Shown piece after piece: positions 2,043 to 35,899 of a DNA stretch of 64,000 bases. The DNA comes from Acidobacteriota bacterium (lineage in GTDB: Bacteria; Acidobacteriota; UBA890; WLXD01), in contig CBDBHB010000008.1 of assembly GCA_965205505.1 (NCBI GenBank), forward strand, positions 864,001 to 928,000, written 5' to 3'. Made by a program: the position numbers and the translations under genes. Each line of letters starts with the position of its first letter. Within the stretch, counting starts at the first letter, position 1. The notes beneath the pieces are model-generated. The model had not been told where the DNA came from. It saw only the letters and a list, made by a program, of their open reading frames with translations, and did not search any database.

Positions 2043-2083
2043 AGTGGCCTGTAACAGATGATCGTTGCCTATCGTGGTGGCGA
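2043..2083. repeat. Solo left end of the TA-flanked palindromic element (type C end)
   Basis: agtggcctgtaacagatgatcgttgcctatcgtggtggcga matches 35345-35385 at 40/41 nt. Confidence 0.85.
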
Positions 2084-2112
2084 CCCGCGGCAAAACGTCG
2101 GAACATGGCACT

Positions 2113-9830: not shown

Positions 9831-10104
9831 TACTCCTGATCATAAGTACGGTGACGTTTGCAGGAGCGAGATGCGGGCGAGATCAAGGAAGGGTGAGGAA
9901 GGCGATGCCTTAGCCGTCCTCGACGAGCCCTGACGCCGAGATCGCCTGCATATCGCTCCTGCCCTCCGGGTGGCCGCGGGACCGGCCACCTTCGGCGTCG
10001 CGGCGCCTCGACGATACACCCAGCATCGCCCTCGTCGCCGCTCCTACAATTCGCCCCGGTCGCGCGCGCCACAAACGTCACTGTACTTATGATCAGGAGC
10101 ACTA
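9828..10104. mobile_element. TA-flanked palindromic (MITE/RPE-like) element, type A/A ends
   Basis: 33-nt terminal inverted repeats tagtactcctgatcataagtacggtgacgtttg (31/33 match), two internal opposed hairpin arms, no transposase. Confidence 0.9.
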
Positions 10105-10800
10105 GGGGCCTGCCGCGTCGAGCATGGCGCGCGCCATGCGCGGTCCGGCGCCATCGTCTTCGTGCTTGAAGAACACGAAGGTCTCCGTCCAGTGCAAGGC
10201 TCGTATGCGGTCGCGCCACTCGTCCAGGGCGGCAGCGTCGTAATCAGTGCGACGGAGCCTCAGGTATCCCCAGCTCGCGGTAGCCACGAGCGGCACCTCC
10301 ACCTTCCCGCCGTCGGCAACTACGAGTGCCGCGTCAAATTCGCGCAGCGTCGCGTACACCTTGTCGTCGAACCAGGACTCGTTGCGAAACTCGAATGCCA
10401 CGCGGTCACCCTTCGGCACGCGCTCCAGGAAGGCTCGCAGCGCCTCGATGTCCTTCTTGGCGTACGGCGGCATCTGAACGAGGTGTGCACCCAGGCGCTC
10501 ACCGAGCTCCGCGGTGACACCGAAGAGATACTCGAGCAACTCGTCGTCGGCCCGCAGTCTGGAGAAGTGCGAGATCCGACGCGTTGCCTTGAGCACGAAG
10601 CGGAACTCCTCGGGCACAACCTGCAGCCACTTCGTGACCAGCTTCGCCGACGGCATGCGATAGAAGGTGTTGTTGATCTCCACGCTCGGCAGTTGCCCGG
10701 CGTAGTACTCCAACATTCGCGCGTCCGGAAGATCAGCGGGATAGAAGTTCCCCTTCCAAGCCTTGTATGAGAACCCGCTCGTTCCGGCCAGAATCTGCAT
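10102..10800 (-). CDS. DUF72 (YecE-like) protein
   Basis: GTSGFSY..W.G.FYP, VEINNTFYRMP, AFEFRN.SW, YLRLR; ATG at 10800. Confidence 0.9.
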   Translation of the reverse strand: MQILAGTSGFSYKAWKGNFYPADLPDARMLEYYAGQLPSVEINNTFYRMPSAKLVTKWLQVVPEEFRFVLKATRRISHFSRLRADDELLEYLFGVTAELGERLGAHLVQMPPYAKKDIEALRAFLERVPKGDRVAFEFRNESWFDDKVYATLREFDAALVVADGGKVEVPLVATASWGYLRLRRTDYDAAALDEWRDRIRALHWTETFVFFKHEDDGAGPRMARAMLDAAGP

Positions 10801-10801
10801 C

Positions 10802-11446
10802 CTACGCCCAAGTGTCTCGTAAGCCATCGAAATCACGGATCGGCCAGCTCCCGCGATACAGCAGCACCATGCCCGCCATTTGAACCACATGGTACAGGTC
10901 GTTGTGATTGAAATGCCGGTGCAGGGCAACGCCGCTAGCCTGGATTGCGGCGGCGGCCAGGGTCACCAGGAGCCCCGCAACCAGCCAACCGGCTCCTGCC
11001 ACGCCCCGGTACATCTGAACCAGCTGCAATGCCAGCACCGCGGCGATCTGTGGAACGTAGTTGGCGATGACCCAGATGAAGTCATCGTGCCGCAACATCC
11101 AAGCCGCATACACGATGAGCTGGACGATTGCCATCACCAACAGAATCCGCCGCGGCCTGGCTCGCAACGACGCATGGGCGCTGGCGGCCAGAAACAGGAA
11201 CACCGTGGCACCGATGGCCAAGACAGTGAGCTTCCAAAGAAAGCTGTGGGCTCCAACTCCCAGATACGCTCCGAAACCGTGCGAAGTGCCTCCAGCGAAC
11301 GCGGCGAGGCCGATGCTCCAGAAGCTGACAGCGAACAATGTCCGCGCCCGCGACGCCGACGATTGCTTTAGCAGCCGTTTCCCCAGCCATACCGCGAGCA
11401 CCGCGAGCAAGTAGTCGGTGAGCGTCGTCATCGGGTCGACGATCAT
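10802..11446 (-). CDS. Multi-pass membrane protein (DUF6962-like)
   Basis: PMTTLTDYLLA, GGTSHG, HFNHNDLYHVVQ; about 7 TM helices. Confidence 0.7.
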   Translation of the reverse strand: MIVDPMTTLTDYLLAVLAVWLGKRLLKQSSASRARTLFAVSFWSIGLAAFAGGTSHGFGAYLGVGAHSFLWKLTVLAIGATVFLFLAASAHASLRARPRRILLVMAIVQLIVYAAWMLRHDDFIWVIANYVPQIAAVLALQLVQMYRGVAGAGWLVAGLLVTLAAAAIQASGVALHRHFNHNDLYHVVQMAGMVLLYRGSWPIRDFDGLRDTWA

Positions 11447-11462
11447 GCGCCTCTTGTCTCCA

Positions 11463-13631
11463 TCACTCGTCCAGCGAGGCCCGCATGCGATCACCGGGCT
11501 GGGTGAGCTCGATCGCCCGCTGCCCATCGACCACCCGGCCGACCATCGGGAACTCGCCGGTAAGGTGAGGCTGCGCGGCATGGGCGACGAAGAACTGCGA
11601 ACGCGCGCTATCTCGACCTGCGTGTGCCAGCCCGACGCTGCCACGCACATACCCGATGGGCGAGTCTTCGTTGCGTAGCGCCGGCGCCAGTACTCCGTCA
11701 GGCGAGGCGCCACCTTGCGTCACGAACCCCGCGATCACTCGATCAAACCGACTGCCGTCGAAGAACCCGGCCGCCGTCAGATCGATCAGCTGGACGACGC
11801 TCAGCGGAGCCCAATCCGGACGCAGTTCGATTACCACCTCGCCGCGGTCGGTCTGAAGGTGTAGGCGGGTATCCTGCGACTGCAACCCGAGCACACGTTC
11901 CGCCAACTCGACGTAGATGGCGCGGTCGCGGCCGCTAGCATGCGGCGCCAGCAGCGCCTCGATATCCCGCAATACGCTCCGCGTCTCAGGACCACGACCG
12001 AGGTCGTCGAGGGCCGCGAATCGAACGAAACGATCAGGCTCATCGCGAATTAGCGAGAGACGTCGCATCAGCAACTCATGCCCGATCGCCGAGAGGGCAC
12101 GTAGCGCCGCTAACCGCGGCCCGCGCCTCTCAGAGCCCCGCTGATCGAAGTAGCGCCGCCACAGCCGATCGGCCATCTCCGCCTGCAGCTGCGGATCGTC
12201 GTGAAAAAAGGCCGCCTTATGGTGGCGGGCGATCAGGTCGAGCGCTTCTTCCTCGAGGTCTCCGTCGACCAAATCAAACGCCATCCGATAGGCTTCCTCC
12301 GGTGCCCGATCCTCCAGCTCGGCCAAGAGCGCTGCGCGCACTGGCCGCGGGCCGGAGCGCAGCAGGGCCGCAGCGAGCGACTGATCCGCAAGCTCCTCCG
12401 AACGCGACAGGGCCCGCGCGAACCAGACCGCCTCGAGGCGAAACTGATCGAGGTATTCGAGCACCACCGCATCCGTATCGGTTGCGTTCTCAATTCCAAC
12501 GCGGCGACGGGTTCGGGAAACCACCTCCTCGAGGAGCTTGCCAGAGGCCCCCACCAGACCTTGAATCGCCGCCAGTCGAACGCTCTCGGCTCCCTCACCC
12601 AATGCCTCGAGCAAGCGATCGGAAGCAACGCCTCGGCTCGAGACGGTTGCCCCCAGGGCACGGAGGGCACAGCTGCGAACGTGCAGGTCCCGATCGAGCG
12701 AACGTCGCAAGACCGCCACGAACGCATCGTCGCCGGCCGCGCCCGCCTCGCCCTCCCAGGTCGTCTCCAGCCAGGCCAGAGCTTCACACTGCAAGCGGCG
12801 ATCACGCGTGTCCAGCAAGCGGACGGCATTGGACTCCGCCACATGCTGCGGAGCGCCGCGCAGACCGCGCACTGCCATCAAGCGCACCTCGGTGTCGGGA
12901 TCATCGATCAGCGGCATCAACTGCGGCAGCGCGTTGGGATCGGTGAGACGGCGGAGCGCATGCGCTGCCGCCAGACGGACGGTGGCGACCGGCCAGCCCG
13001 TGAAGGGGCGTATGGCATCCGCGGCGGCACCGGCCAAGCGCCACCAGCTGTTGAGCATCGCCGCCAGCACCGCCGGATTCGGGTGCGTCTCCGGCGTGCT
13101 TTGGCCGGCGCGCAGTAGCCAGCCGGCCACCGCTGTCGCAGCATCGCCGTCGACGATGCCCAGCGCCCACGCAGCTTGTTCCGCGACTAGGCTGGCCGGC
13201 TCGTCGAGCAACGGCAGCAGAGCGTCACGCGCGCGCGTACGCTCAGCGTCCTCCGTATCCACGGCGAGGTCGTACTCCAGGCGTCCGAGAGCGAACGCCG
13301 CGGCGGCGCGAACCACCGTTGCAGGATCGCGGGTGAGCTCGATCAGGCGGGACAGTAAGCGTGGCGAACCGACCCGGCCGATAGCGAGAGCCGTCCGCGA
13401 TCGCATCGCGGCATCCGGCGACGCGGCCAAGTCGAGGAGGCCTTCGGCGGCATAGCGTCGGTCCTCGGACTCGAGGATCAACGCAGCCGCTTCCACCGCC
13501 GCTGGCAACGGGGGCGGCCAGGCAACCTCGCCGCCGACCGATTCGTCTCCGGCACCGGGCTGCTGAAGGCCACCCGATCCTGCACCCATGGAAACGGCCA
13601 CCAGCGCGAGCACCCCGAGCAAGCGCATCAT
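11463..13631 (-). CDS. HEAT-repeat protein with C-terminal cyclophilin-type PPIase domain
   Basis: Signal peptide; VRAAAAFALG HEAT units; C-terminal TDRGEVVIEL...GFFDG..F.RV...FVTQGG...SQFF. Confidence 0.85.
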   Translation of the reverse strand: MMRLLGVLALVAVSMGAGSGGLQQPGAGDESVGGEVAWPPPLPAAVEAAALILESEDRRYAAEGLLDLAASPDAAMRSRTALAIGRVGSPRLLSRLIELTRDPATVVRAAAAFALGRLEYDLAVDTEDAERTRARDALLPLLDEPASLVAEQAAWALGIVDGDAATAVAGWLLRAGQSTPETHPNPAVLAAMLNSWWRLAGAAADAIRPFTGWPVATVRLAAAHALRRLTDPNALPQLMPLIDDPDTEVRLMAVRGLRGAPQHVAESNAVRLLDTRDRRLQCEALAWLETTWEGEAGAAGDDAFVAVLRRSLDRDLHVRSCALRALGATVSSRGVASDRLLEALGEGAESVRLAAIQGLVGASGKLLEEVVSRTRRRVGIENATDTDAVVLEYLDQFRLEAVWFARALSRSEELADQSLAAALLRSGPRPVRAALLAELEDRAPEEAYRMAFDLVDGDLEEEALDLIARHHKAAFFHDDPQLQAEMADRLWRRYFDQRGSERRGPRLAALRALSAIGHELLMRRLSLIRDEPDRFVRFAALDDLGRGPETRSVLRDIEALLAPHASGRDRAIYVELAERVLGLQSQDTRLHLQTDRGEVVIELRPDWAPLSVVQLIDLTAAGFFDGSRFDRVIAGFVTQGGASPDGVLAPALRNEDSPIGYVRGSVGLAHAGRDSARSQFFVAHAAQPHLTGEFPMVGRVVDGQRAIELTQPGDRMRASLDE

Positions 13632-14449
13632 TCGGTCGCCGCCCACCCGGAAGCCGACAGCGCGGCGCGAAGTCGCTTTGCGAGCCCTCCGACGGTGCGC
13701 CGTCGTCGTCCGACAGCACCTACCGGCATTGCTCCGATGAGGCTATTCACCAGCATCACCTCGTCGGCTTCCACCAAGTCGGCCTCCCGCAGCCGGCCCT
13801 CGACGACCAGGCCGCTCTCGAGCAGGCGTCGTCGGACGGTGCCCGGCAGACAGCCTTCGTCGAGCGGCGGTGTCAGCACGCGGCCACCCACTCGGGCGAT
13901 CACGTTGCTCCTGCTTCCCTCGGCTACTCCACCTCGCCGATTGAGCAGGATCGCTTCGAACGCGTCCTGTTCGGATGCCATCGCAAGCGCCATCGACTGA
14001 CGCTGCCACGAGATCGACTTCACCTGCCGGAGCGGGTCCCGTTCGTCCACCGTAAACTCCCGAGCGACGACGACTGCCACTCCTGCATCGTATGCGGCGG
14101 CTGCCGGCGGTGAATAGGAAGCAGCCGTCGCCAACCGAGTGGGACCAAGATCGGGACTCCCTCGCGTCACGGTGACTCGCAGCCGCGCGACCGGCTGCGG
14201 CGCCGCCGCCGCCACCGCGTCGATGGCAGCACGCAGCTCATCGCGACTTTCGGGAATCGACAGCCGAATCCGCTCGAGGCCATCGAACAAGCGGTCCAGG
14301 TGTGCCTCAACATCCAGCGGTTGGCGGCAATCGACGCGCAGCGTCTCAAAGAGACCGTCGCCAACCAGGAAACCGGCGTCGTTACACTCGATGCGAGCAT
14401 GCTCGCCGGCGATCAGCGCACCGTTGAGATAGGTGCGGAGCTCAACCAA
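13628..14449 (-). CDS. pabC: Class IV aminotransferase / 4-amino-4-deoxychorismate lyase
   Basis: GDGLFETLR, HLDRL, EGSRSNV, LPGTVR; follows pabB. Confidence 0.75.
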   Translation of the reverse strand: MVELRTYLNGALIAGEHARIECNDAGFLVGDGLFETLRVDCRQPLDVEAHLDRLFDGLERIRLSIPESRDELRAAIDAVAAAAPQPVARLRVTVTRGSPDLGPTRLATAASYSPPAAAAYDAGVAVVVAREFTVDERDPLRQVKSISWQRQSMALAMASEQDAFEAILLNRRGGVAEGSRSNVIARVGGRVLTPPLDEGCLPGTVRRRLLESGLVVEGRLREADLVEADEVMLVNSLIGAMPVGAVGRRRRTVGGLAKRLRAALSASGWAATE

Positions 14450-15854
14450 CTCCCAACGCCTGTAGAAAGGCCTGCGCCTTCGCCATCGTCTCCTCGCGCT
14501 CGGCCCGCGGATCGGAGTCCGCCACGATGCCGCCGCCGGCATGGTAGTCGACACGATCTGCAGTCACGACTGCGGTGCGTATCGCCACGGACAGTTCCAT
14601 ATCTCCGTCGGTGTCAATCCAGCCGATCGCCCCCATAGCCGGCCCGCGGCGACGCGGCTCCTCGGCGGCCGATACCTTCATGGCCTGAATCTTCGGGGCC
14701 CCGGTGATCGATCCCGGAGGGAACGTGGCCCGTAGCAGGTCTGTGGGCCCGATGTCAGGTCGCAGCCGAGCCGCCACACGAGCCACCGTGTGAATCACGG
14801 TGGGGAGCACCATCGGGGCAGCGAATTCATGCACGACGACGCTACCCGGCACGCTAACTCGGCCCAGGTCGTTGCGTACCAGATCGACGATCATGGCCAG
14901 CTCAGCGGCGTCTTTCTCGCTGTCTTGCAGAGCTGCGATCACGGCAGCGTCCCGGGTCGGATCAGGGCGTGGTCGCGTCCCTTTGATGGGATGGCTCTCT
15001 ACCGCTCGACCGCGCAGCTTGAGAAAACACTCGGGGCTGACCGACAGCACCGCAGCGTCGGGCAGCTGCAGGTAGGCACCGTACTCCGCCGGACTGGCCG
15101 CTCGAAGCCGCCCGTAGAGTTCCCAAGCATCACCTAGCGACCACGGCGCCGCGAAACGACGGCACAGGTTGGTCTCGAAGATCTCGCCGGCACGAATCCG
15201 CTCCAACGTGCGCCGCACGGCCGCTTCGAAGCCCGGCCCGTCAGGCTCGCTCGACACGCTCGTCGGGGCCGCCGGCCCGCCATCCCGGCTGTCGACCTCG
15301 GCGGCCTCGCAGAGACGCTTCTCGACCCGTGACTGCAACATCTCCATACGCCCACCGACGGCCGCGCCGATCAGGCGCCATTGCTCGCCGCGCCCCTCGA
15401 GCCAGGCGGTGTAAATGCCCAGGTGCATGTCCGGCACTGCAGCATCCGCAGCCGGGAGAGTCGGCAACTCCTCCAGCAGCGCAGCGAGCTCATAGCCGAG
15501 GAAGCCGAACAGGCGCGTTCCCGCGGGAAGCACGCCGAGCAACGCCTCGACAGCACCGAACGCGTCCACTGGCAGGCGCACTTTTTGGGCGTCGTGGCGC
15601 AACGTCGTCGACGAGCCGTGCGCAGACAGGACCGCCACCGGTTCGATGGCGAACAGGGTGCGCCCCGGCCCGGCCCCGTCGAGCCATACGAACCCGGGCT
15701 CATCATGCAACGCATCGGCGAGGCGAACCGCCGAGCACTCGGCGCGCAGCGCAATGCTCGCCACTGTGCCGCGTTGTTCCAAGACCGGCAATCGATCCAG
15801 CAACATCGACCGCGTGGCTGCCAGAGCCTCGGCGGCGGGCTTATCCGACCACAC
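14442..15854 (-). CDS. pabB: Aminodeoxychorismate synthase component I (chorismate-binding, TrpE/PabB family)
   Basis: SPECFL, PIKGTRPR, MIVDLVRNDL, FPPGSITGAPKIQAM, GGGIVADS. Confidence 0.85.
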   Translation of the reverse strand: MWSDKPAAEALAATRSMLLDRLPVLEQRGTVASIALRAECSAVRLADALHDEPGFVWLDGAGPGRTLFAIEPVAVLSAHGSSTTLRHDAQKVRLPVDAFGAVEALLGVLPAGTRLFGFLGYELAALLEELPTLPAADAAVPDMHLGIYTAWLEGRGEQWRLIGAAVGGRMEMLQSRVEKRLCEAAEVDSRDGGPAAPTSVSSEPDGPGFEAAVRRTLERIRAGEIFETNLCRRFAAPWSLGDAWELYGRLRAASPAEYGAYLQLPDAAVLSVSPECFLKLRGRAVESHPIKGTRPRPDPTRDAAVIAALQDSEKDAAELAMIVDLVRNDLGRVSVPGSVVVHEFAAPMVLPTVIHTVARVAARLRPDIGPTDLLRATFPPGSITGAPKIQAMKVSAAEEPRRRGPAMGAIGWIDTDGDMELSVAIRTAVVTADRVDYHAGGGIVADSDPRAEREETMAKAQAFLQALGVG

Positions 15855-16425
15855 CCGCCCCGTCCAGGAAGTTCGCGAGCACGCGGTCGCCCGCGTCCGT
15901 TAGGAACGACTCGGGGTGAAAGAGCACGCCCTCGGCCGGCCGATCAACCATCCGGCATCCCATGATGATATTCTCGCAGTCGCTGGTCGCCGTGACCTCC
16001 AAGCGATGATCGACGCTGCCCGGATCAACAACCAGCGAGTGGTAGAGGCCCACGAGCAACGGGCTCGGCAGCCCGCGTAGCACCCCGGCGCCGCGATGGC
16101 GAACCAAACGTCTCTTGCCGTGCATGGGTACGCCGGAGGGCTCCACACGAGCGCCCGCCGCGACCGCGATGACCTGCATTCCAAGGCATACGCCGAGGGT
16201 GGGCACTCGCCCAGACAGGCCGGCGACCACTTCCGAACAGACGCCGGTCCGGTCCGGGCCGAAAGGACCTGGCGATAACACGATGCGATCCGGCTGTAAG
16301 GCCGCAACTTCATCGAGCGTGACGGCATCCGACCGGCACACAGTGCACTCGGCCCCCTGCGCGGACATCATCTGCACCAGGTTCCAGGTGAAGGAATCGT
16401 AGTTGTCAAGAACCAGTACGTGCAC
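15841..16425 (-). CDS. pabA: Glutamine amidotransferase component II (PabA/TrpG)
   Basis: LDNYDSFTWNL, SPGP, GVCLGMQ, YHSL, FHPES. Confidence 0.9.
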   Translation of the reverse strand: MHVLVLDNYDSFTWNLVQMMSAQGAECTVCRSDAVTLDEVAALQPDRIVLSPGPFGPDRTGVCSEVVAGLSGRVPTLGVCLGMQVIAVAAGARVEPSGVPMHGKRRLVRHRGAGVLRGLPSPLLVGLYHSLVVDPGSVDHRLEVTATSDCENIIMGCRMVDRPAEGVLFHPESFLTDAGDRVLANFLDGAGVVG

Positions 16426-16431
16426 AGGACA

Positions 16432-17763
16432 CTAACCCAGCCAACCAGAGAGTAGCGTCATCAGGACCGCCACCGGGACCACGTAGCGCACCCAGAAGAA
16501 CCACGCGTTGATCCACCTCGGCACCACGCCCGCCTCCTCCAGCTGTCGACGTACCGACGGCAAGCCCAGCCCCCAGGCCAGGGCCACGACGGCGGCCACG
16601 CTGCCCACCGGTTGCATCGTCGAGCCCCACAAGAGGTCGCTCCAGACGATGTAGTCGAGCGACAGCATCGCCGGCAGCCCCGCCACGACGAGCAACGCCG
16701 AGATCGCCCACGCCGAACGGCTGCGGCTCCAGCCACGAGAGTCGGCCAATGATCCGACCAGCACTTCGACCGCGGCTACACCGGACAGGAAGGCGATACA
16801 CAGGAGGCCGAGGAAGAACAGGGCACCGAAGATGGGTCCGGCCGGCATGGCGACGAACGCGGCCGGCATGACCTCGAAGAGCAGCGGCGGACCGGTCGCC
16901 GGTGACAGCCCGTAGGCGAACGCGACCGGTATGACTACCAGCGCCGCCAGGATGCTGGCTGCGACGTCGCCTACCGCGGTGGAGATCACCCGCCGAGGCA
17001 ACGGCGCGTCGGGAGGCAGATAGGAACCGTAGATCACCAAGAACGTTCCACCGAGTCCAAGAGAAAAGTACGCTTGCCCAACCGCGGCCATCACCGCCAA
17101 CGGCGTAAGCGCCCGCCAGTCGAAGGTAAACAGATAGCGGAATCCTTCGGCCGCCCCCGGCAGCGACAGCGACCATGCGACGAGACCGAGGGTAAGCACA
17201 CCGAACACCGGCAGGACAAAGCTACTGATGCGCTCGATACCCTGGCGAACGCCCTTGGATACGACCGCCGCCGCCGCGGCACCAACTACCGCCGAGCACA
17301 GCATCTGTACCGGCCATCGGGCATGCAGGGCGGCAAAGGTCTCGGTCGACAGCTCGTTGAAGCCGACGGCCCAGCCCAATGACATCACGAGGTAGGCCAG
17401 CAACCACCCAAGCACCACGAGGTAGTAGGTCATCGCCATCGCGACGCCAACGAACAATAGGTGCCCGATCGGCCGCCCGGCCGGAATCCCGGCACGAACG
17501 AACGCCTCGACCGGCCCCCGACCTGTAGCTCGCCCCAGCGTGAGCTCGGCGAGCAGCGCCGGAACACCCACCACGACGACGATGAGCAGGTAGATCGCGA
17601 GAAACGCTCCTCCGCCGAACATGCCCATCATGTAAGGGAAGCGCCAGAAGTTGCCGAGGCCAATCGACACCCCCAGCAGGGCGAAGATCATTCCCCAGCC
17701 GGACGAGAAGGTCTCGCGCCCCGCCGCGTCTGCCGGGGCCGGCCCGCTACCGTCGGGAGCCAT
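16432..17763 (-). CDS. Sodium-dependent transporter, NSS/SNF family
   Basis: RETFSS, IGLGNFWRFPY, GGGAFL..Y, GIER, QAYFSLGLG. Confidence 0.92.
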   Translation of the reverse strand: MAPDGSGPAPADAAGRETFSSGWGMIFALLGVSIGLGNFWRFPYMMGMFGGGAFLAIYLLIVVVVGVPALLAELTLGRATGRGPVEAFVRAGIPAGRPIGHLLFVGVAMAMTYYLVVLGWLLAYLVMSLGWAVGFNELSTETFAALHARWPVQMLCSAVVGAAAAAVVSKGVRQGIERISSFVLPVFGVLTLGLVAWSLSLPGAAEGFRYLFTFDWRALTPLAVMAAVGQAYFSLGLGGTFLVIYGSYLPPDAPLPRRVISTAVGDVAASILAALVVIPVAFAYGLSPATGPPLLFEVMPAAFVAMPAGPIFGALFFLGLLCIAFLSGVAAVEVLVGSLADSRGWSRSRSAWAISALLVVAGLPAMLSLDYIVWSDLLWGSTMQPVGSVAAVVALAWGLGLPSVRRQLEEAGVVPRWINAWFFWVRYVVPVAVLMTLLSGWLG

Positions 17764-17890
17764 TCACTCGTCGCGCCGAACAGCTCCGTCGGTCAATAGC
17801 CGCGTAGCACAGACTCAACACGCTCGATCGGGGCGGCACGTCGCTGTCGGAATACGGGGTGGGCAGGCTCCAGAACCCAGAAGTATCCCA

Positions 17891-18074
17891 TAGCAGGCCG
17901 TGGTGGAAGTGTGGCTGGTCTGGCGACAGGGTTTTGCGGGCGGAGGCAAGGAGAGAGGAGGAAACGATGGTTACCCCATCGTCGACGACGAACGACGTAG
18001 CATACGCGCGCAACCCCCTATCGCCCAAAGGGTTACGGCAACCAGGCCCGCCACACTGCCACCACGGCCTGCTA
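17891..18074. mobile_element. TA-flanked palindromic element, type D/D ends, single arm
   Basis: TIRs tagcaggccgtggtggaagtgtggc / gccacactgccaccacggcctgcta (24/25). Confidence 0.85.
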
Positions 18075-18107
18075 GGAGCCGCTTTCCATCCGTGCGGCCA
18101 CATGTGG

Positions 18108-18224
18108 TCATGAATATCTTATTACATGGTTAACAGAACAATATTGCTTTATTAGATTTCTTTAATCCATTATAGCAACGTATACTATTTAATAATAATT
18201 GTTAATAGTCAATAGAGTGTTATC
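18108..18224 (+). promoter_or_regulatory. Very AT-rich upstream region of the c-di-GMP enzyme
   Basis: Contains tatactatttaataataattgttaatagtcaatag in a GC-rich background. Confidence 0.5.
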
Positions 18225-20567
18225 TTGAGTCGAAGTGTCGCCACCGAGGGCCGGGCAGCGAAGGCGTCCGCTACCGTCGAAGATCGCCAGCTTGCCGGCG
18301 TCGTCATGACCCGCTGCACCGTGCTGATCGGCGCCGCCTATTTGGTGCTCTATGGCAACGGCGAACCGGTGGCGCCGTGGCAACAGATCGCGATGGTGCT
18401 GGTCTTGATGGCCAGCCTCTCTTGCTACGGCATTGCGGTGCGCTCTGGCCGGTGGGAACGCTTGCGCTGGCCGATCACGCTCGCCGATCTTGTCCTCGTG
18501 ACCGTCGCGGTGGCGTTTACTGGTGAAGCGACGAACGACTTCTTCCTGTTCTTCTTCTTGGTGCTGATCATCGCCGGAATCAGCAGCCAGTTCGGCCACA
18601 CCGTGGTCGCCACCATGCTGGTTTGCTCGGTCTACTTCGGCATGATGTATGCCGATCACGGCAGCCTGCTGTTGCGGCAAACTGATCTGCTCATCCGCCT
18701 GCCCTTCCTATTCGGCGTCGGTCTGTTCTTCGGCACGATCTCCGATGAGGCACGTCGTCGGGAGCAACACCGGTACAACCACATCACCGACGTCAACCGC
18801 AAGATGGTGCATCGCTACCATCAGGTGGCGTCGGAGCGAGACCGCACCAGGGCCCTACTGGAAATCGGCCAGCTGGCGCTGTCATCCGGCGATCCGCAAG
18901 GCGTGCTGCGTTCGGTGAACATGAAGCTACGTGAAACGGTGCGCGCCGAGCGGTGTTCGACGCTGATCTTCAATGAGGGAGATCGACACGCCTACCTCGC
19001 CGCCTGTTCCGAGGACGGGGAACAGAGCGTTCAGCTGCTACTGGCTCTGCGGCACTATCCGGAGCTCGAGGAAACACTCTCCACTGGGGAGATCACTGAG
19101 CTGCACGCCAACCAACCCTCGAAGCTCTGGGAGAAAGTGCGCCACCATCTTCCGGCGGCACACCGGTTCCGCAGTTGGTTCGTGGTTCCAGTGATGCACA
19201 GCGAGGTTGTGGTGGGAGCTTTCTTCCTGCGTGATGCCTGTGAGGACTTCACCTTGCAGGAGGAGGAGAGAACTTTCTGCAAGGCCGCCGCCTTGATGGT
19301 GGCCGGCTACTTGCAGGGTTGTGACCTCGTCGAGGAGATGCGACGGCGGACGCGTCTGGACGGACTCACCGGACTTCTCAACTTCTCCACGTTCCGTCAG
19401 GAGCTCGACGAGGCGTTGATCGAGCACGCCAAGAAGGAACACGCGAAACCGCTCTCGCTCGTGATGGTCGATATCGACAACCTCAAGACAATCAACGATC
19501 GTCACGGGCATATGGTCGGCAATCAGGTCATCGGAGAGGTCGGCCAGCGGCTGGCGCGGGCGTTGCCAATGGCCCACTCGATCTGTCGCTATGGCGGCGA
19601 CGAGTTCTTCGCGCTCGTGCCGCTCGACAAGAAGGCCGCCATCGAGCGCGCCGAGCGAGTGTTGATCCTGCTCGAGGAACTGCCTGAAGAGATGCAGTGT
19701 TCCGTACAGGTGTCGATCGGCATCGCGACATTCCCGGAGGACGGCGAGGTGGCCGATAGCTTCATGGACGCAGCAGATCGCGCCATGTACGTCGCCAAGG
19801 GCGAGGGCGGCAATCAGATCCACTCCGCGGGCGTGGGTGACGAGAGCGACGACCGCGTGTACCAGGCAATGATCGCTGTAAACGCGCGGCGGCTGATACC
19901 GGGGGAGGGCAACGCGCTGCGTCAGGTTCTCGACAGCATGCTCCGCAGGGAGGAGCAGGAGCTTGACAGCGCCGCCGTGCAACAATCGCTGCGGGCGCTG
20001 ATGGAAGCGGTGGAGTCCAAGGACAGCTACACGCGCACGCATTCGCTGGAGGTATCCGATCTGACCCGTCGACTCTGCTCGGCGGTCGACCTTACCGAAC
20101 GCGAGGCCCTCGCTGTAGAGGTGGGTGCGCTTGTACACGACATCGGCAAGGTCGGGATCCCCGACGACATCCTGAAGAAGCCCGGGGCTCTAACGACACG
20201 CGAACGCATGCAGATCGAGCAACACCCGGAGATCGGAGCACAGATCCTCAAACCACTTCCAGCGTTGAAGGCCGTCGTCCCCTTGGTGCTACAGCACCAC
20301 GAACGCTGGGATGGTACCGGGTATCCACACGGGCTGGCGGGCACCGATATTCCGGTCGGCTCCCAGATCATCTCGCTCTGCGACGTATGGCACGCGCTGA
20401 CCTCGGACCGCAGCTATCGCCCGGCCTTCTCCCACGAGGTCGCGCGCGACATGATCGCCGATGGCCGCGGCGCCGAGTGGCCCGAGGATCTGGTCGACGC
20501 GTTCTTCGTGATCATCGAAGAGATGCGTGTCGAAAGCAGGCGGAACCGGCGACGCCGTAGCGCCTGA
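18225..20567 (+). CDS. Membrane TM-GAF-GGDEF-HD-GYP c-di-GMP signalling protein
   Basis: N-terminal TM helices; DGLTGL, DIDNLK.IND..GH, RYGGDEF; HDIGK, HHERWDGTGYP. Confidence 0.92.
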   Translation: MSRSVATEGRAAKASATVEDRQLAGVVMTRCTVLIGAAYLVLYGNGEPVAPWQQIAMVLVLMASLSCYGIAVRSGRWERLRWPITLADLVLVTVAVAFTGEATNDFFLFFFLVLIIAGISSQFGHTVVATMLVCSVYFGMMYADHGSLLLRQTDLLIRLPFLFGVGLFFGTISDEARRREQHRYNHITDVNRKMVHRYHQVASERDRTRALLEIGQLALSSGDPQGVLRSVNMKLRETVRAERCSTLIFNEGDRHAYLAACSEDGEQSVQLLLALRHYPELEETLSTGEITELHANQPSKLWEKVRHHLPAAHRFRSWFVVPVMHSEVVVGAFFLRDACEDFTLQEEERTFCKAAALMVAGYLQGCDLVEEMRRRTRLDGLTGLLNFSTFRQELDEALIEHAKKEHAKPLSLVMVDIDNLKTINDRHGHMVGNQVIGEVGQRLARALPMAHSICRYGGDEFFALVPLDKKAAIERAERVLILLEELPEEMQCSVQVSIGIATFPEDGEVADSFMDAADRAMYVAKGEGGNQIHSAGVGDESDDRVYQAMIAVNARRLIPGEGNALRQVLDSMLRREEQELDSAAVQQSLRALMEAVESKDSYTRTHSLEVSDLTRRLCSAVDLTEREALAVEVGALVHDIGKVGIPDDILKKPGALTTRERMQIEQHPEIGAQILKPLPALKAVVPLVLQHHERWDGTGYPHGLAGTDIPVGSQIISLCDVWHALTSDRSYRPAFSHEVARDMIADGRGAEWPEDLVDAFFVIIEEMRVESRRNRRRRSA

Positions 20568-20583
20568 GTCGCGGGCTGCTGCC

Positions 20584-21582: not shown

Positions 21583-21704
21583 TCACGGCCTCCGGTAGGC
21601 TAGTGTCCCGACGCAGGACACCAGCTTCGTATAGGAGGATCCTGTAATGCCGCCGGCCAGGATGCAATGCGGCGACCCCCCAACGGCGCGATGACGAGTG
21701 CAAA

Positions 21705-23580: not shown

Positions 23581-23676
23581 CGCCTGCCCCCGTCTGATGA
23601 GCTTCGGCCAGCCATTCGAACCCGCCCCGCGGCGGCTACCGAGCGAGACCTTGCCAGCGCCGACGGCGTCAAACCT

Positions 23677-24015: not shown

Positions 24016-24108
24016 TCGTGGATCCTCCGACGCGTGTGGGTGAAGATCGGCAAGACACTAGCGGCAAGGCTAGCTACGCTATCATCGGGTCGTGCAAGGA
24101 GCAAATAG

Positions 24109-26273: not shown

Positions 26274-26377
26274 TGGGAATCAGACGGGGTTGGCGGGAGC
26301 AGCTAAACTACAGTGCCCGCGAAACAGTCGCCAGCACCCCGTGCGGACCCGAGCCGGGCATAGGACTTCCGGAAGCG

Positions 26378-27217
26378 ATGTCACAGATCCTCCGAATCGG
26401 GCAAAGCGCCGACCCCGACGACGCGTTCATGGCATGGGGGCTGCGCGCCGAGTTGGAGCGACGCGGTCTCGACGCCGAGTTGGAGTTCGCCGACATCGAG
26501 TCGCTGAATCGAGCTACCGAGGATGGTCGCCTCGATCTCAGCGCGATTTCTGTGGGCGCCTACCCGACGTTCGCCGACCGCTATCGGATGTTGCGCTGCG
26601 GGGCCAGCTTCGGCGACGCGTACGGACCACTCGTGGTCGGTACCCGACCTCCGAGCGCGGGCACCGACACACCACTTTCAGGACTCACGGTGGCCATCCC
26701 CGGAGCCTTGACAACCGCCCGGATGCTTCTGCGCAACTACGCCGGCACGACCTATCAGGAGGTCGAGATGCGATTCGACGCCATCCTCGACGCGGTCGTC
26801 GCCGGTGAGGTGGACGCCGGACTGATCATTCACGAAGGGCAGTTGCTGTACGAGCGTATGGGGTTACACGCGCTCTTCGAACCGGCGATGGAGTGGGCCG
26901 AGCGCGAGCAGCTACCGCTACCGCTCGGAGTGGTAGCTATGCGCCGCGATCTTGCCGCACCGGTTCAGGAGGCGGTCGCCGACGCGTTTGCTCATAGCGT
27001 GCACGCCGCATTCCAGCATCCGGAGGCAGCCCTCGACTTCGCCGCAAGCTACGCGCGCGGTCTGGCCCGCGATGACCTCGAGGAGTATGTCTACCGATAC
27101 GTCAATGCGGCAACCCTCGACATGGGTGTAGCCGGGCAACGGGCCATCGAGCGTCTGTTCGAACACGCTCGAGCTGCCGGGCTTCTGGCCACGGTACCGG
27201 CGGTCGACCTCTACTAG
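26378..27217 (+). CDS. mqnD: 1,4-dihydroxy-6-naphthoate synthase
   Basis: SADPDDAFM, DIESLN, YGPLVV, AIPG.LTTA, IIHEGQL, PLPLG, YVN. Confidence 0.88.
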   Translation: MSQILRIGQSADPDDAFMAWGLRAELERRGLDAELEFADIESLNRATEDGRLDLSAISVGAYPTFADRYRMLRCGASFGDAYGPLVVGTRPPSAGTDTPLSGLTVAIPGALTTARMLLRNYAGTTYQEVEMRFDAILDAVVAGEVDAGLIIHEGQLLYERMGLHALFEPAMEWAEREQLPLPLGVVAMRRDLAAPVQEAVADAFAHSVHAAFQHPEAALDFAASYARGLARDDLEEYVYRYVNAATLDMGVAGQRAIERLFEHARAAGLLATVPAVDLY

Positions 27218-27319
27218 ATGAGATGAGAAGGCCAACCTCCTGAACGCAGTAGCCTGACGGCTCTGCAAACGTTTCTTCAAACGTAACGGGCTCGAAGCCC
27301 AAGGAGGTTGGCCGAGCAA

Positions 27320-28111
27320 GTGTAACGATTGGACTGGACGTAAGCGACCGGTACAGCCGTATGTGCGTGCTCGACAGTAAGGGCAGGGTGATGGAGGAAG
27401 GGCGGGTGAGGACGAGCCCGGAGGGGCTGGCGAGGCGGTTCGGGTGCGAGGAGCCCGCTCGAGTAGTGCTGGAGGTTGGAACGCGCTCGCCGTGGATGAG
27501 TGAGCAGTTGAAGCAACTGGGTCATGAGGTGCTGGTGGCTAACCCGAGGCGGCTGAAGCTGATCTATGGCGAGCACGACAAGACCGACCGGTTGGATGCC
27601 GAGCACCTGGCACGAGTGGGCAGAATGGACCCAAAGCTGCTTAAGACGGTGCAGCATCGAGGCAGACAAGCGCGAGCGGATCTAGCCGTGATTCGGAGCC
27701 GAGATGCTCTGGTAAAGAGGCACGCAGTTGGTGAGCCATGTGCGTGGTGCGGTCAAGTCGGCCGGTTGTCGTATTCCCAGGTGCTCGACGCCGGCGTTCG
27801 CGCGCACCGCGCCAGAGCACATACCGGAGCGGCTCAAGGGAGCGCTCGAGCCGGTGCTTGAAACGATCGCCATGCTGACGGGCAACATCCAGCAATACGA
27901 GCGTCAGATCGCAACGCCGAGATTGCCCCTATGGCGTATGTCGACGCTCCCAGCCTTCCGGGTGACGGCGGGACCGGCCGCCTCCGGCGTCGCGGCGCCT
28001 CGACGATACACCCAGCATCGCCCTCGTCTCGCCGTTGTGCTGCACCGACTGTGGCTGAGTGGAGACGAGTACGAACCGTTGCGCGCACCTGTAGAGGTTT
28101 CAGCAGCATGA
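27320..28111 (+). pseudogene. IS110 transposase, disrupted
   Basis: GLDVSD, LEVG, KTDRLDA (DEDD RuvC-like) present; start codon lost, frameshift near 27718, Tnp domain missing. Confidence 0.85.
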
Positions 28112-28357
28112 ACTAACCCGCAACCAGGAGGTCGGTAGGGCGACGCGACCCAACGGTTATCGATCTGACCGCCCGGTCCGGGCGACTGCGAAGGTCACTA
28201 CGAGCTTCGAGCTCGGCAGCTAGATTGCAGCGCCTCGAATCGGGACGGACCCCAGAATGCACCGGACGACCTGAATCCTCGTCCACCAGAGTGCGAATAG
28301 GAGCATGGCGTGCAGATCGATTCTTCGCTGGGCACCACATTGCCCTTGACCGAACTA
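28112..28357 (+). ncRNA. Candidate bridge/seek RNA region (right non-coding end of IS copy 1)
   Basis: Same sequence as 51167-51412 (apart from a 1-nt indel), including the target-matching segments. Confidence 0.65.
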
Positions 28358-28371
28358 GGCCTTCTCTTAGA

Positions 28372-28646
28372 AGTGGCCTGAGTCAGAGGTTCGTTGCATA
28401 TTGCTGGGCCGAGATAGGGGCAAGCTCAAGGCGCGATGAGAATGGCGATCCTCTCCGATCGTCGACGAATCGCAACGCCGAGATTGCCCCTATATCGTCC
28501 CAGCCTTCCGGGTGACGGCGGGACCGGCCGCCTCCGGCGTCGCGGCGCCTCGACGATACACCCAGCATCGCCCTCGTCGCCGCTCCTACAATTCGCCCCG
28601 GTCGCGCGCGCCACAAACGTCACCGTACTTATGATCAGGAGCACTA
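28372..28646. mobile_element. TA-flanked palindromic element with hybrid ends (C-like left, A right); left TA at 27215-27216 separated by the IS
   Basis: Left agtggcctgagtcagaggttcgttgcatat resembles the type C end; right ~130 nt nearly identical to 9978-10105. Confidence 0.88.
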
Positions 28647-29348
28647 GGGATCGCGTCGTGCGCTGTCGATCACCAGTGGAACCATCGGCATGTATCCCAA
28701 GGTCGTGCCAGGTTCCGGCGCTGTCGGCACCAGAGTGATCCGATCGACGGCCTCGATCCCTTCGACGACCAGCCCGAACACCGTGTACCCCGGGTGATCG
28801 GTCCCGGCGTGGTCGAGACTCGGGTTGTCGAGGTAGTTGATGAAGAACTGTGAAGTCGCGCTATCGATATCGCTTCCCCGACGGGCAAGCGCCACCGTAC
28901 CGCGCAGGTTCGCAAGGCCGTTGTGAGCCTCGCTGACAACCGGATCGTGCGTCGGCCGTGCATTCAGATCCGCGTCATAGCCACCTGCCTGGATGACGGG
29001 GAGGGCAAACGGCGGCTCGACGCGATGGAAGATTGTGCCGTCGTAGAACCCCTCGTCGACGTAGCGCAGGAAGTTGGCGACGCTCACCGGCGCTCGATCC
29101 TCGTACAAGGCCACCACGATGTCACCCACCGTGGTAGTCAACCGAACTCGCGGCGCATGGGCCGGCAGCGGAGCAGGATCGATCACCGGGCCGCGCTCCG
29201 GCAACGGGTCGTGTAGCCATGCATCGCGTCCACCGCACGCCGCGACGGCGAGCAAGACAGAAACGAGCCCCGCGCACAGCACGGCCGGCGACCTTAGCAC
29301 CGCCGCACGCCGACCGGGCAACCTCGGCTCAGTACGTCTCGACCACAT
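28644..29348 (-). CDS. Cyclophilin-type peptidyl-prolyl isomerase, lipoprotein
   Basis: Lipobox VAAC; APVSVANF..Y...GFYDGTIFHRV, SATSQFFIN, YTVFG; start uncertain. Confidence 0.9.
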   Translation of the reverse strand: MWSRRTEPRLPGRRAAVLRSPAVLCAGLVSVLLAVAACGGRDAWLHDPLPERGPVIDPAPLPAHAPRVRLTTTVGDIVVALYEDRAPVSVANFLRYVDEGFYDGTIFHRVEPPFALPVIQAGGYDADLNARPTHDPVVSEAHNGLANLRGTVALARRGSDIDSATSQFFINYLDNPSLDHAGTDHPGYTVFGLVVEGIEAVDRITLVPTAPEPGTTLGYMPMVPLVIDSARRDP

Positions 29349-32750: not shown

Positions 32751-32775
32751 CGTTCCGGTCGGCTCCGAGGGAAGC

Positions 32776-34659: not shown

Positions 34660-35237
34660 TCCGCCGGCTCCGGCTCGAGTTGCTCTGACCGCCAGGCGCG
34701 AGGCGTCTCGGCCCCTAGGGTGGCCGCGACCTTGTCGACGAAGTGCTCGATGAGTTGCTCGAGATCGGCAGGTTGATGGTAGAAGGGCGGCGACGCTGGC
34801 ACGATGATCACACCGTCACGTGACAGTCGTACGGCGTTCTCCAGTGCGTTCGTCGGCCACGGGGTCTCCCTCACCACCAGCACCAGCCTGCGACGTTCCT
34901 TTAACGCCACCATCGCGGCGCGGGTGATCAGCGAGTCGGCCAAGCCGTTGGCGATCTTCGCCAGGGTGCTCAGGGAGCACGGAATCACCACCATGGCATC
35001 GAATGAGTTGGAGCCCGACGCAAAGGCGTTGGCAAGATCCTTGTCCGAAAAGATCCGCCGTACCAGCGGACGCAGGTCCTTCTCCGTCAGACCGGTTTCC
35101 TCTTTCAACACCATGCGGCCCCAGTTACTGAGCACCAGGTACGCCTCGCCGAGGTCACGTCTCAGCAAGGCCACCGCGTAAGGCGCTCCGGACGCACCGG
35201 TCATGCCTACGAGAATGCGCCGCGGTCGAGCGCTCAC
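34656..35237 (-). CDS. ubiX: Flavin prenyltransferase
   Basis: GMTGASG, ASGS, PCS..TL, LKERR.L.LVVRETP, P.FYHQP. Confidence 0.93.
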   Translation of the reverse strand: MSARPRRILVGMTGASGAPYAVALLRRDLGEAYLVLSNWGRMVLKEETGLTEKDLRPLVRRIFSDKDLANAFASGSNSFDAMVVIPCSLSTLAKIANGLADSLITRAAMVALKERRRLVLVVRETPWPTNALENAVRLSRDGVIIVPASPPFYHQPADLEQLIEHFVDKVAATLGAETPRAWRSEQLEPEPAE

Positions 35238-35343
35238 GGGCCTGACTCTCCGCCGTTTGGAAGGTGCCGTATCAAGCGTTTGACGTCCTGTCCAACAAGT
35301 GACGGCGGCCGCTGTAACCAGATCCGCCAGAGTTCTTCAGCAC

Positions 35344-35893
35344 TAGTGGCCTGTAACAGATGATCGTTGCATATCGTGGTGGCGAAATGGGCTCGGATGC
35401 CAGGCGCAACGACGAGACGATGTTGGCCCATCTTGGAGGAGAAGCAACGCCGCAGACGGGCCCATTTCGCCGCCATCCTGCGGACAGATGGGCAGTTGTG
35501 GGCGATATCGGCGTTGCGCCTCGTCAACGATGCCCCAGCAGGTCGTGATGGAAGTGTGATGGGTCTGGTTACGCCACCAAGGGCGCGGATCCAAGGCGCC
35601 GCGTCGCAGGCGATGCCCGTGCGCATCGTCTAGGAGCGGCAACGCCGGAGACGCGCCCTTGGCGGCGTAACCTGTAGGGCAAGTGGGAGTCACGGGCGAT
35701 GGCGGCGTCTCTCCTCCTCGACGATGGCTCCAGCATCGCCTCATCGTCGATCCTTGTCCTAGCCCGTGAGTCCCATTTGCCAGACCCACCACACTTCCAT
35801 CACGGCCTGCTAGCATCGCCCTCCTCCCCGCGCCTTGATCTCACCCGCAAATCCCATCTGCGATATGCAACGATCATCTGTTACAGGCCACTA
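35344..35893. mobile_element. TA-flanked palindromic element, type C/C ends, carrying a nested type D element
   Basis: Perfect 33-nt TIRs tagtggcctgtaacagatgatcgttgcatatcg / cgatatgcaacgatcatctgttacaggccacta. Confidence 0.92.
35536..35812. mobile_element. Nested palindromic element, type D/D ends, two arms
   Basis: cagcaggtcgtgatggaagtgtg ... cacacttccatcacggcctgcta; ends match those of 17891-18074. Confidence 0.85.
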
Positions 35894-35899
35894 GATCCC

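Follow-up and report, generated by a model that had tools for sequence, protein, structure and literature searches.

Several families of small hairpin-forming MITEs are known in bacteria, among them Correia/NEMIS in Neisseria, ERIC/IRU and YPAL in enterobacteria and bcr1 in the Bacillus cereus group. These elements are flanked by TA or by short duplications and fold when transcribed. Compensatory changes, and effects on adjacent messages that act at the RNA level, are reported for some of them. Each of them forms a single hairpin over its whole length and is confined to a genus or family. The interior of a MITE is usually taken as junk between the transposase-binding ends, whereas in the elements presented here it is the best-conserved part.

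The window, that is, the whole stretch of 64,000 nucleotides analysed, comes from the genome of an Acidobacteriota bacterium, and the original prediction had noticed in it a covarying hairpin arm repeated at least nine times. These arms are probably the upper parts of hairpin modules of ~100 nt, which are carried by non-autonomous MITEs and kept through the spread of these elements. As MITEs the elements are ordinary; what they hold is a strand-specific fold that is kept across several bacterial phyla.

MITEs and hairpin modules in the window

The repetition of the arm is real, and all the positions quoted for it were found to hold one: eight arms in the window are intact, a ninth is interrupted by a nested insertion and a further copy is partial. 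The arm is, however, just the top of the ~100-nt hairpin module, and it is not a free-standing motif but cargo of MITEs that target TA/CTAG and have 34-nt terminal inverted repeats. With its filters switched off, a covariance model (R1) recovered the eight intact modules with 64-90 bits, at 9861-9961, 17924-18023, 28404-28503, 35377-35475 and 35569-35670 on the plus strand and at 9968-10070, 28510-28612 and 35680-35779 on the minus strand; these scores are partly obtained by construction, because R1 was built from the window and other copies of the same genome. A partial match (30.9 bits) lies at 27963-28060 on the minus strand. A loose core pattern matched the window five times, against 0.01 matches expected from 100 shuffles. 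With the eight window arms as seed, nhmmer (E < 1e-3) found 330 arms in the genome, in 22 sequence clusters and at 190 loci, a few of these arms being duplicates from overlapping contig ends.

A full element of ~285 bp begins and ends with a 34-nt terminal inverted repeat, and a short GC linker separates the two modules inside, the second of which is inverted. The sense of module 1 is the top strand and that of module 2, which belongs to a different sequence cluster, is the bottom strand. The arms of the terminal inverted repeats measure 32-35 nt with 91-100% complementarity, and six end types occur in the genome. The consensus sequences of the MITE families show sharp borders at (C)TAG. Element size ranges from 180 to 285 bp at ~190 loci, without a transposase gene. 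Copies within one family deviate from their consensus by ~3-6%, flanks included, and are too alike for the decay of stems to be compared with that of loops.

The complete two-module MITE at 9827..10105 has type II ends (terminal repeats 9827-9860 and 10072-10105, inverted repeat I4), which enclose a cluster-4 module on the plus strand (9861-9961) and a cluster-0 module on the minus strand (9968-10072), with a GC mini-hairpin linker placed between them. The modules score 88.9 and 65.5 bits with R1. The whole element is predicted to fold into a Y (-163.7 kcal/mol), the z value being -12.25 with RNA energies and -11.09 with DNA energies, and the stop of the ORF 9171..9830 is its terminal TAG. The element at 17891..18074 (plus strand, end type I, terminal repeats 17891-17923 and 18042-18074, I5) is a one-module derivative with a cluster-1 module at 17924-18023 on the plus strand (73.9 bits with R1). 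Compared with the 285-bp family consensus, its second module has been deleted and the stump TTACGGCAA remains; the deletion junctions differ at the 18 further one-module loci compared. The orthologous site in a genome of the same genus (G004) retains a different half of the element, in which the same left repeat is followed by a truncated cluster-3 module.

A MITE fragment on the minus strand (27908..28028) with a partial cluster-0 module (30.9 bits with R1) lies inside a rearranged IS110-family copy. Its segment 27948-28028 is 100% identical to 28498-28578, and in contigs of two other sequencing runs 362 other letters stand at the place of 27908..28028. The two-module MITE at 28372..28649 is chimeric, the left half being of type V (repeat and cluster-9 module, 28403-28504, plus strand) and the right half of type II (cluster-0 module, 28510-28612, minus strand, and repeat 28614-28647). 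It shows 90% identity to 9917-10107, and its modules score 89.7 and 64.1 bits with R1.

The composite element at 35343..35894 (I1, I6), of a type present at five loci in the genome, consists of an outer type III MITE and a nested type I-like MITE, and its three intact modules score 81.5, 89.5 and 81.2 bits with R1. In the outer MITE the terminal repeats occupy 35343-35376 and 35861-35894; a cluster-2 module lies on the plus strand (35377-35475) and a cluster-5 module on the minus strand. The split arm proposed at 35507-35837 corresponds to this last one, a single module (35484-35536 and 35814-35860) cut in its terminal loop by the nested 275-bp element. The nested MITE (35537-35813, terminal repeats 35537-35568 and 35780-35811) carries a cluster-6 module at 35569-35670 on the plus strand and a cluster-8 module at 35678-35781 on the minus strand. 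A scan of the composite element and its surroundings (35250-36000) for sigma-70-like promoters and intrinsic terminators gave 0 and 0.

Other parts of the window hold remnants. The truncated left end of a type III MITE at 2041..2085 (plus strand; D11, I2) comprises the repeat and the beginning of the module stem. MITE remnants without modules were recognised at 51420..51512 by comparison with the family consensus sequences; at 51420-51445 the start of a type V left repeat is fused directly to the end of a right repeat, and 51487-51512 is a right repeat of type VI-like sequence. A type IV remnant of ~72 bp (58876..58947; I11, I12), with both repeats kept and both modules gone, is placed between a stop codon and the following start codon.

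Architecture of the module

The base of the module is a stem of 21-25 bp whose sequence is free and which contains a single conserved mismatch, in most cases C·C. The sequence of this lower stem is wholly different between clusters, with the pairing kept. Above it there is a 2x2 purine loop (mostly GA/GA) and a 3-bp helix, followed by an AA bulge (C-AA-GG), two or three pairs and a 3-nt R-A-C bulge on the 3' strand. The covarying 5-bp stem above this bulge (P2) is absent in about one quarter of the copies (clusters 1, 2 and 8). The compensatory stem changes described in the original prediction are real, but the inner stem is not common to all arms. In the conserved internal loop, 5' G-A-N-G-(n)-A-G faces 3' C-G-A-N'-G-A, where N and N' covary. 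Toward the tip, a conserved step of G-C and G·U leads into the stem CGATG/CATCG, which is closed by a free loop of 5-8 nt.

The GA steps of the internal loop can form tandem sheared pairs. In a kink-turn, a 3-nt bulge is followed by tandem sheared G·A pairs on the same strand. Here the GA/GA steps flank the covarying pair and a bulge of 0-1 nt is located 3' of them on the 5' strand, an order that by inspection differs from the canonical one. A coding reading, suggested by Shine-Dalgarno-like purines and the ATG in GGCGATG, was rejected because the purine run is not general and because the variable length of the loop shifts any reading frame.

Covariation and strand specificity

The proposal of a selected fold is supported: covariation is seen in a larger alignment spanning several phyla. 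RNAalifold applied to 18 cluster representatives gave 25 pairs, 18 of them with compensatory changes. The cross-genome alignment (A2) contains 104 matches from 80 loci of other genomes, among the matches listed, fitted to the model. In this alignment 91.1% of the cells are paired as compared with 72.5% in shuffles, and none of 500 shuffles reached 91.1%. Double changes are seen in 29 of the 33 pairs, with clusters and related genomes being non-independent samples, and sliding the partners by 1-3 columns leaves 31-50% paired. Because P3, the RAC-GCCG segment and the 3' half of the GA loop were prescribed in the pattern that selected the members of A2, the conservation of these three parts there arises by construction. 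The isolated pair inside the GA loop covaries (C-G 73, G-C 24, other 2).

The idea that the motif acts as a single strand is borne out by the large excess of G·U over A·C and by sense scores far above the antisense ones. In the free stems of 17 cluster consensus sequences G·U occurs 21 times and A·C once, and in the cross-genome alignment, with the outermost pair left aside, the counts are ~55 and 9. At the base of P3, 14 of the 18 clusters have G·U and three have A-U or G-C; A·C never occurs there. R1 gives 64-90 bits for the sense strand and 12-18 bits for the antisense strand. With RNA energies the sense strand exceeds the antisense strand in stability in 16 of 17 clusters (p 0.0005), and with DNA energies in 12 of 17 (p 0.14). 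Two-arm elements indeed carry one sense arm per strand (114 of the 115 two-arm loci are convergent), and at none of the 115 loci do both modules of an element belong to the same cluster. The selected form is local hairpins, not one long hairpin.

Insertion target and mobilisation

The insertion target is the TA inside CTAG. An empty site in the same-genus genome G004 reads ATGA-CTAG-TGGCC (ATGACTAGTGGCC), where the window has ATGA-CTAG[279 bp]CTAG-GGGCC with the element at 9827..10105. The outer flank bases of family VI and of the 17891 copy vary and the TA is constant; at imperfect sites the flanks fit a TA duplication better than a CTAG duplication, the two being indistinguishable at perfect CTAG sites. 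According to crude gene calls, the terminal TAG is the stop of a converging gene at 116 of 528 element ends. No empty-site joint was found in the contigs of four DNA runs over 9000-28999, where the contigs end at the elements.

The genome encodes IS630-family transposases (NF033545 at 272.9 and 275.4 bits, cut-off 100) with DDE_3 and HTH_29/HTH_32 domains. Over the outer 24 nt, the ends of two IS630 copies (L005 and L006) agree with MITE type V at 21 positions and with type IV at 20, and in a related genome (G007) the IS ends match type IV at 22 of 24; in all, three MITE end types (III-V) match IS630-family ends of the genome studied. For types I, II and VI, the commonest ones, no autonomous partner was found and the end match is just 12 of 24. 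A search for an autonomous element between pairs of terminal repeats 1.3-3.8 kb apart revealed ordinary genes in the four inspected. Among the 25 module-bearing relatives, 15 have no DDE_3 match, including a two-contig genome (G003) with at least 99 module matches. The matching of the ends indicates mobilisation of types III-V in trans by IS630-family transposases, and types I, II and VI would presumably be mobilised likewise. Insertion at the TA inside CTAG duplicates the TA, and a TAG stop codon, rebuilt in the process, is often the target.

The conserved segment stands ~34 nt inward from each end, always at that distance and in inverted orientation; CGATG...CATCG, nearly invariant, is a small inverted repeat in its own right. 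Both features would suit a double-stranded DNA site, either subterminal transposase repeats or a site for a nucleoid protein, in which case the conserved object would be a long terminal inverted repeat and not a fold. We regard this explanation as very improbable: a duplex site requires neither compensatory changes nor the G·U/A·C asymmetry, the same core stands behind unrelated end sequences, and the autonomous IS630 copies carry neither the module nor the conserved segment.

Loss of modules and level of selection

Deletion has produced the one-module loci in heterogeneous ways, the 18 cluster-1 loci showing at least 12 different junctions. Single copies lose their modules by varied deletions, and selection thus seems to act on the spread of the element and not on the host locus. 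We infer that the module is a cis-acting part of the element, kept because its carriers spread, and that selection at the host locus does not explain it. No preference in orientation relative to the neighbouring genes is seen in the one-module remnants. The gene on the entry side reads in at 24 and away at 28 according to crude, GC3-based ORF picks; these numbers lend no support to a role in host 3' UTRs.

The surviving sense module of the one-module remnants is in the lagging-strand sequence in 38 cases and in the leading-strand sequence in 16 (p 0.004, uncorrected, with about five tests run). The more stable module of a pair is usually the lost one; cluster 1 alone is found at 18 loci and cluster 3 alone at two, and cluster 0 alone at eight and cluster 4 alone at one. 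The replication bias and the loss of the more stable module fit hairpins on single-stranded DNA at the replication fork, and a role as folded single-stranded DNA in transposition, not as RNA, is our second-best guess, although a rather doubtful one. The element would then adopt the Y shape, with a terminal-repeat stem and two arms resembling a parvovirus ITR, which would join the ends or mark a strand and so aid excision or integration, its loops being read by the transposase or by a host DNA protein. DNA energies likewise give a three-armed fold of the whole element (z -11.09), DNA too can form tandem G·A pairs and G·T, and the module looks needed for spread rather than for the host. On the other hand, IS630/Tc1-mariner transposition is a double-strand cut-and-paste reaction, and the stability gap between sense and antisense is clear with RNA energies only. 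Moreover, the replication bias may be a by-product of deletion without function, and a search for an HUH/Y1 transposase gene found none in this genome of 96% completeness.

Action of the module as RNA is our best guess, a tentative one. A transcript entering the element from either side would reach a sense module first, and this module, as RNA, could form a hairpin that resists nucleases or is bound by a protein, and that terminates or protects the message of the neighbour.

Distribution and relation to described motifs

R1 matches were found in 25 of 41 related genomes. In a pattern scan with one genome per species, R1 matched 70 of 80 loci among the matches listed. By title, the R1-positive records among these belong to Acidobacteriota (several classes), Gemmatimonadota and Myxococcota/Myxococcales, together with one 'Chlamydiota' and one 'Spirochaetaceae' MAG. 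Pattern matches titled Cellulomonas, Variovorax, Thioalkalivibrio, Casimicrobiaceae, Acidimicrobiia, Actinomycetota, Alphaproteobacteria, Planctomycetaceae and Chloroflexia were discarded as chance matches without the fold. The core pattern gave one match in viral contigs (L180), and a search of PLSDB plasmids in distant mode with the 279-bp element as query gave none.

GCAGG-type ends also recur across phyla, and so whole elements may have moved together. The core could accordingly be the product of common descent, horizontal spread and recombination among MITEs, with no function and with hairpins that are a by-product of palindromic ends; the near-identity of the genome copies, the inter-family chimeras (28372-28649, for example) and the free decay of single copies point in this direction. 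We nevertheless consider it improbable that the module lacks a function, given lower stems that differ wholly between clusters with their pairing kept, the strong G·U versus A·C asymmetry and the lone covarying pair inside the conserved loop. The lack of same-cluster pairs (0/115) is also unlike simple long inverted repeats.

No family in Rfam 15 corresponds to the module. The window had no match at gathering score, Acido-1 (RF01686) and Acido-Lenti-1 (RF01687) included, and two elements searched with E up to 10 retrieved just miRNA-precursor and lncRNA models at 12-28 bits, against cut-offs of 65-168. A search of the main text of published papers returned no account of the module.

The paired inverted hairpins recall REPIN doublets, and a likeness to Rickettsia RPE-1 had been put forward. 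The latter is unsupported, their palindromic nature being the single link seen between the two, and Rickettsia is absent from the 80 loci among the matches listed in the pattern scan. Y1_Tnp (PF01797) gave 0 matches in the genome (96.3% complete), and the elements have 34-nt terminal repeats and a duplicated TA/CTAG target. That the elements are REP/REPIN sequences moved by a RAYT (Y1), or relatives of RPE-1, is hardly credible.

Discussion

The interior of these MITEs folds strand-specifically, its stems covary and its non-canonical loops are fixed, and it is common to unrelated ends and to several phyla. It is possible, though we advance it with caution, that the module represents an undescribed class of mobile structured nucleic acid, a GA-studded hairpin of ~100 nt on which the multiplication of MITEs with differing ends would depend in three phyla or more. 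A conserved host protein or the transposase would recognise it as a folded single strand, and its role could be to enhance transposition in cis or, as an RNA insulator, to render insertions at stop codons harmless. Should the spread of the element require the module, there would be an unknown step of transposition or tolerance that involves single-stranded DNA or RNA and an unknown protein partner. The elements fill hundreds of intergenic gaps in soil Acidobacteriota and rebuild TAG stop codons; they also break short-read assemblies and are landing sites for an IS110-family element.

Two described systems are comparable by analogy. Integron attC sites share with the module stems of free sequence, conserved unpaired or mismatched positions and the reading of one strand, but they belong to a different kind of mobile element; here there are no cassette arrays, and 114 of 115 pairs are convergent inside terminal repeats. 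The parvovirus ITR shares the Y- or T-shaped fold with a stem and two arms. REP/BIME and REPIN sequences are likewise abundant intergenic palindromes with inverted pairs and a strand-specific hairpin; the present elements differ from them in that a RAYT gene was not found, in their terminal inverted repeats and target duplication, and in their much longer hairpins. The hairpin-forming MITEs (Correia/NEMIS, ERIC/IRU, YPAL and bcr1) are by description similarly small elements flanked by TA or by short duplications, whereas here two modules of ~100 nt fold locally and a GA-rich core extends across phyla. The elements also resemble IS630 and its MITEs, with which the elements share the TA-in-CTAG target, the TA duplication, terminal repeats of ~30 nt, a size below 300 bp and a high copy number. 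They differ in that their interior did not arise from the IS by deletion; it is a conserved hairpin pair that the IS lacks, and the same module is placed behind unrelated ends and in other phyla.

Hairpin modules as cargo of MITEs

Every arm sequence quoted in the original prediction was found in the window. The arms are not free-standing; each is the tip of a hairpin module of about 100 nt, lying within an element whose ends are formed by terminal inverted repeats (about 34 nt) starting and finishing with (C)TAG. The complete 279-bp element is placed at 9827–10105 and a one-module derivative at 17891–18074. The element at 28372–28649 is a chimeric MITE, with the left repeat of one terminal-repeat class (type V) and the right half of another (type II); recombination in the shared core can shuffle MITE ends and modules. 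A 552-bp composite at 35343–35894 has a second element nested in the terminal loop of the first element's module, and one arm looks split because of this nested insertion. A module fragment (27908–28028) and module-less remnants (2041–2085, 51420–51512 and 58876–58947) could also be seen. The covariance model of the module (R1), partly built from the window copies that it scores, gave eight intact modules (64–90 bits) and one partial module (31 bits); read on the opposite strand, these positions score 12–18 bits. A loose core pattern has five matches in the window, against 0.01 expected by chance.

An nhmmer search seeded with the eight window arms revealed 330 arms in 22 sequence clusters and 190 loci in the genome (5.98 Mb, 64% G+C, 9 contigs), a few loci being counted twice because some contig ends overlap. 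Two modules are present at 115 of the 190 loci, a single one at 64, and three or more, nested or adjacent, at 11. The predicted arrangement of one arm per strand was borne out by 114 of the 115 two-module loci, which are convergent (the first module is sense on the top strand, the second on the bottom strand); in none of the 115 do both modules come from the same cluster. The family consensus, with sharp borders and nearly identical copies within each family, runs from terminal repeat through module, short CCC-N3-4-GGG linker and inverted second module to the other terminal repeat.

Fold and covariation of the module

The minimum-free-energy folds agree across all clusters, and RNAalifold on 18 representatives is concordant, with 25 pairs, 18 of them showing compensatory changes. 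The base of the module is a stem of 21–25 bp, unrelated in sequence between clusters and interrupted by one conserved mismatch, mostly C·C. Next come a 2x2 purine loop in which GA mostly faces GA, then a 3-bp helix, the AA bulge C-AA-GG and two or three pairs that include GCC; an R-A-C bulge on the 3' side precedes the covarying 5-bp inner stem P2. Above P2 lies an internal loop, 5' G-A-N-G-(n)-A-G / 3' C-G-A-N'-G-A, and beyond it come G-C and G·U pairs, a tip stem CGATG/CATCG (P3) that hardly varies, and a free loop of 5–8 nt. Within the internal loop N/N' is a lone covarying pair (C-G 73, G-C 24, other 2), and the GA steps beside it could, judging from their sequence, form tandem sheared pairs. 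The two modules of one element never share stems, which speaks for a pair of local hairpins rather than a single long one.

The module is found in several phyla. A pattern scan using one genome per species gave 108 stretches, of which 80 are listed, and R1 matches in 70 of the 80 loci among the matches listed. The remaining ten were rejected as chance coding matches without the fold, nine having no R1 match and one (locus L095) only 22.5 bits. In 104 aligned R1 matches from loci among the matches listed, mutually related sequences fitted to the model itself, paired cells reached 91.1% vs 72.5% in shuffles (92.7% vs 73.6% with the stored structure). Double changes occurred in 29 of the 33 pairs, and the compensatory stem changes listed in the original prediction are confirmed. 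None of 500 shuffles attained the observed covariation values, and sliding the pairing partners by 1–3 columns left 31–50% paired. Because P3, one half of the GA loop and the RAC-GCCG segment were set by the scan pattern, independent evidence of covariation is limited to the free stems and the lone pair.

Strand specificity and possible role

The covarying fold is strand-specific. In the free stems of 17 cluster consensus sequences G·U outnumbers A·C 21 to 1, and in the cross-genome alignment about 55 to 9 with the outermost pair set aside; this column pair, to which 28 of 37 A·C cells belong, is probably not a true pair. The base of P3 is G·U in 14 of 18 clusters, A-U in two, G-C in one and U·U in one. 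With RNA energies the sense strand is more stable than the antisense in 16 of 17 clusters (means -58.9 vs -52.8 kcal/mol; p 0.0005) and with DNA energies in 12 of 17 (p 0.14), the clusters in these tests being non-independent samples.

A role of the module as RNA is our first guess, on the basis of the G·U signature, a stability gap seen specifically with RNA energies and the convergent layout, in which a transcript entering from either side would encounter a sense module first. The second guess is that the module acts as folded single-stranded DNA. Folded as a whole, the element takes the shape of a Y, made of the repeat stem and two arms (z -12.25 for RNA, z -11.09 for DNA). No promoter or terminator signals were found in a scan of the composite element.

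Target site and IS630 partners

The elements have MITE architecture and a TA/CTAG target. The empty site ATGA-CTAG-TGGCC is uninterrupted in a same-genus genome (G004), and in the window the 9827–10105 element stands there between two CTAGs, its left TAG being the stop codon of ORF 9171..9830. At imperfect sites TA is kept and the base outside it is unlike on the two sides (A-TA-G at 17891; T-TA-G in family VI), so that a TA duplication fits better than one of 4 bp. With crude gene calls, 116 of 528 element ends supply a converging gene with its TAG stop, and 34 of 114 two-module elements lie in convergent gaps, a class that accounts for 18% of all gaps. Of 3936 crudely called genes, 1481 (38%) stop at TAG, a high share given the G+C content of 64%. 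The sequence CTAG is itself rare genome-wide, with 5853 occurrences, about 528 of them MITE ends.

Six DDE_3 matches in the genome correspond to two IS630-family elements, 1190 and 1143 bp long (NF033545, 273 and 275 bits). The ends of the first agree over the outer 24 nt with MITE ends of type V (21/24) and type IV (20/24), the latter also agreeing with an IS630 copy of a related genome (22/24); the IS630 copies themselves lack modules. Three end types (III–V) have an IS630 partner. No autonomous partner for the commonest types, I, II and VI, was found in the genome, and we infer that these too are mobilised by IS630-type enzymes. Modules occur in 25 of 41 related genomes and DDE_3 in ten of the 41, all module-bearing; 15 of the 25 module-bearing genomes lack a DDE_3 match. 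In the related genome G007 (contig C1, loci L172/L173) a type I MITE repeat has taken up an IS630 copy at its terminal CTAG, a junction common to two copies; DDE_3 matches number 43 in G007 and 63 in genome G039.

Neighbouring repeats

An IS110-family element (Transposase_20) is present twice, at 27215–28340 and 50022–51400; its NF033542 score, 110 bits, stays below cut-off since the ORF was scored only in part. Each copy adjoins a type III/V MITE repeat at its outer end, with the junction ...GGCCTTCTC(A/T)TAGAAGTGGCCTG, also seen beside other MITE copies in the genome, and the MITE terminus thus seems to be the IS110 target site. At 27912–28027 in the first copy, 116 nt that match the neighbouring MITE exactly stand in place of 362 nt of the middle, owing to either a rearrangement or a chimeric assembly; the 362-nt form is present in two other runs' contigs. 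At 56383–57016 a long array repeats with a 15-nt period (26 registers, with units like CCGTTGCGGCCGAGC) and presumably codes for a repeat protein of the pentapeptide type. Ser/Gly-rich coding repeats of the same periodicity occupy 3808–4526 (AGCTCCGGTGGCTCC-like), and three tandem 24-nt units 39985–40061 (GAGGCGCGGCGCTTGGCCGAAGAG). Behind 24174, contigs of two of four runs have a 24-nt insertion with CTAG (GTCTGGCACTCTAGGGCAGAGGAT).

One-module remnants

The one-module loci do not form a transposing subfamily: at least 12 different deletion junctions occur among 18 loci with cluster 1 alone. Some junctions coincide exactly with the base of the hairpin that was lost, and some of these loci are truncated. 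In G004 the 17891 site has the same left repeat and a different, truncated module. Single loci drop modules while the multiplied copies are intact two-module elements, which argues for a cis role of the module in the element's own spread.

The orientation of the one-module remnants relative to neighbouring genes shows no preference (24 vs 28). On contigs C9 and C8 of the window's own genome, the surviving sense module is on lagging-strand sequence in 38 remnants vs 16, an exploratory, single-genome result (p 0.004, uncorrected, about five tests). The module usually lost from a pair is the more stable one; together with the strand bias this suggests hairpin-driven deletion on the lagging-strand template at the replication fork.

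Relation to known motifs and elements

A full-text literature search found no description of the module, and the Rfam search for a known motif, which the original prediction had allowed for, gave no matching family, Acido-1 and Acido-Lenti-1, two motifs that PMC2864571 lists for Acidobacteria, included. The elements that carry the module belong to the known class of IS630-type MITEs.
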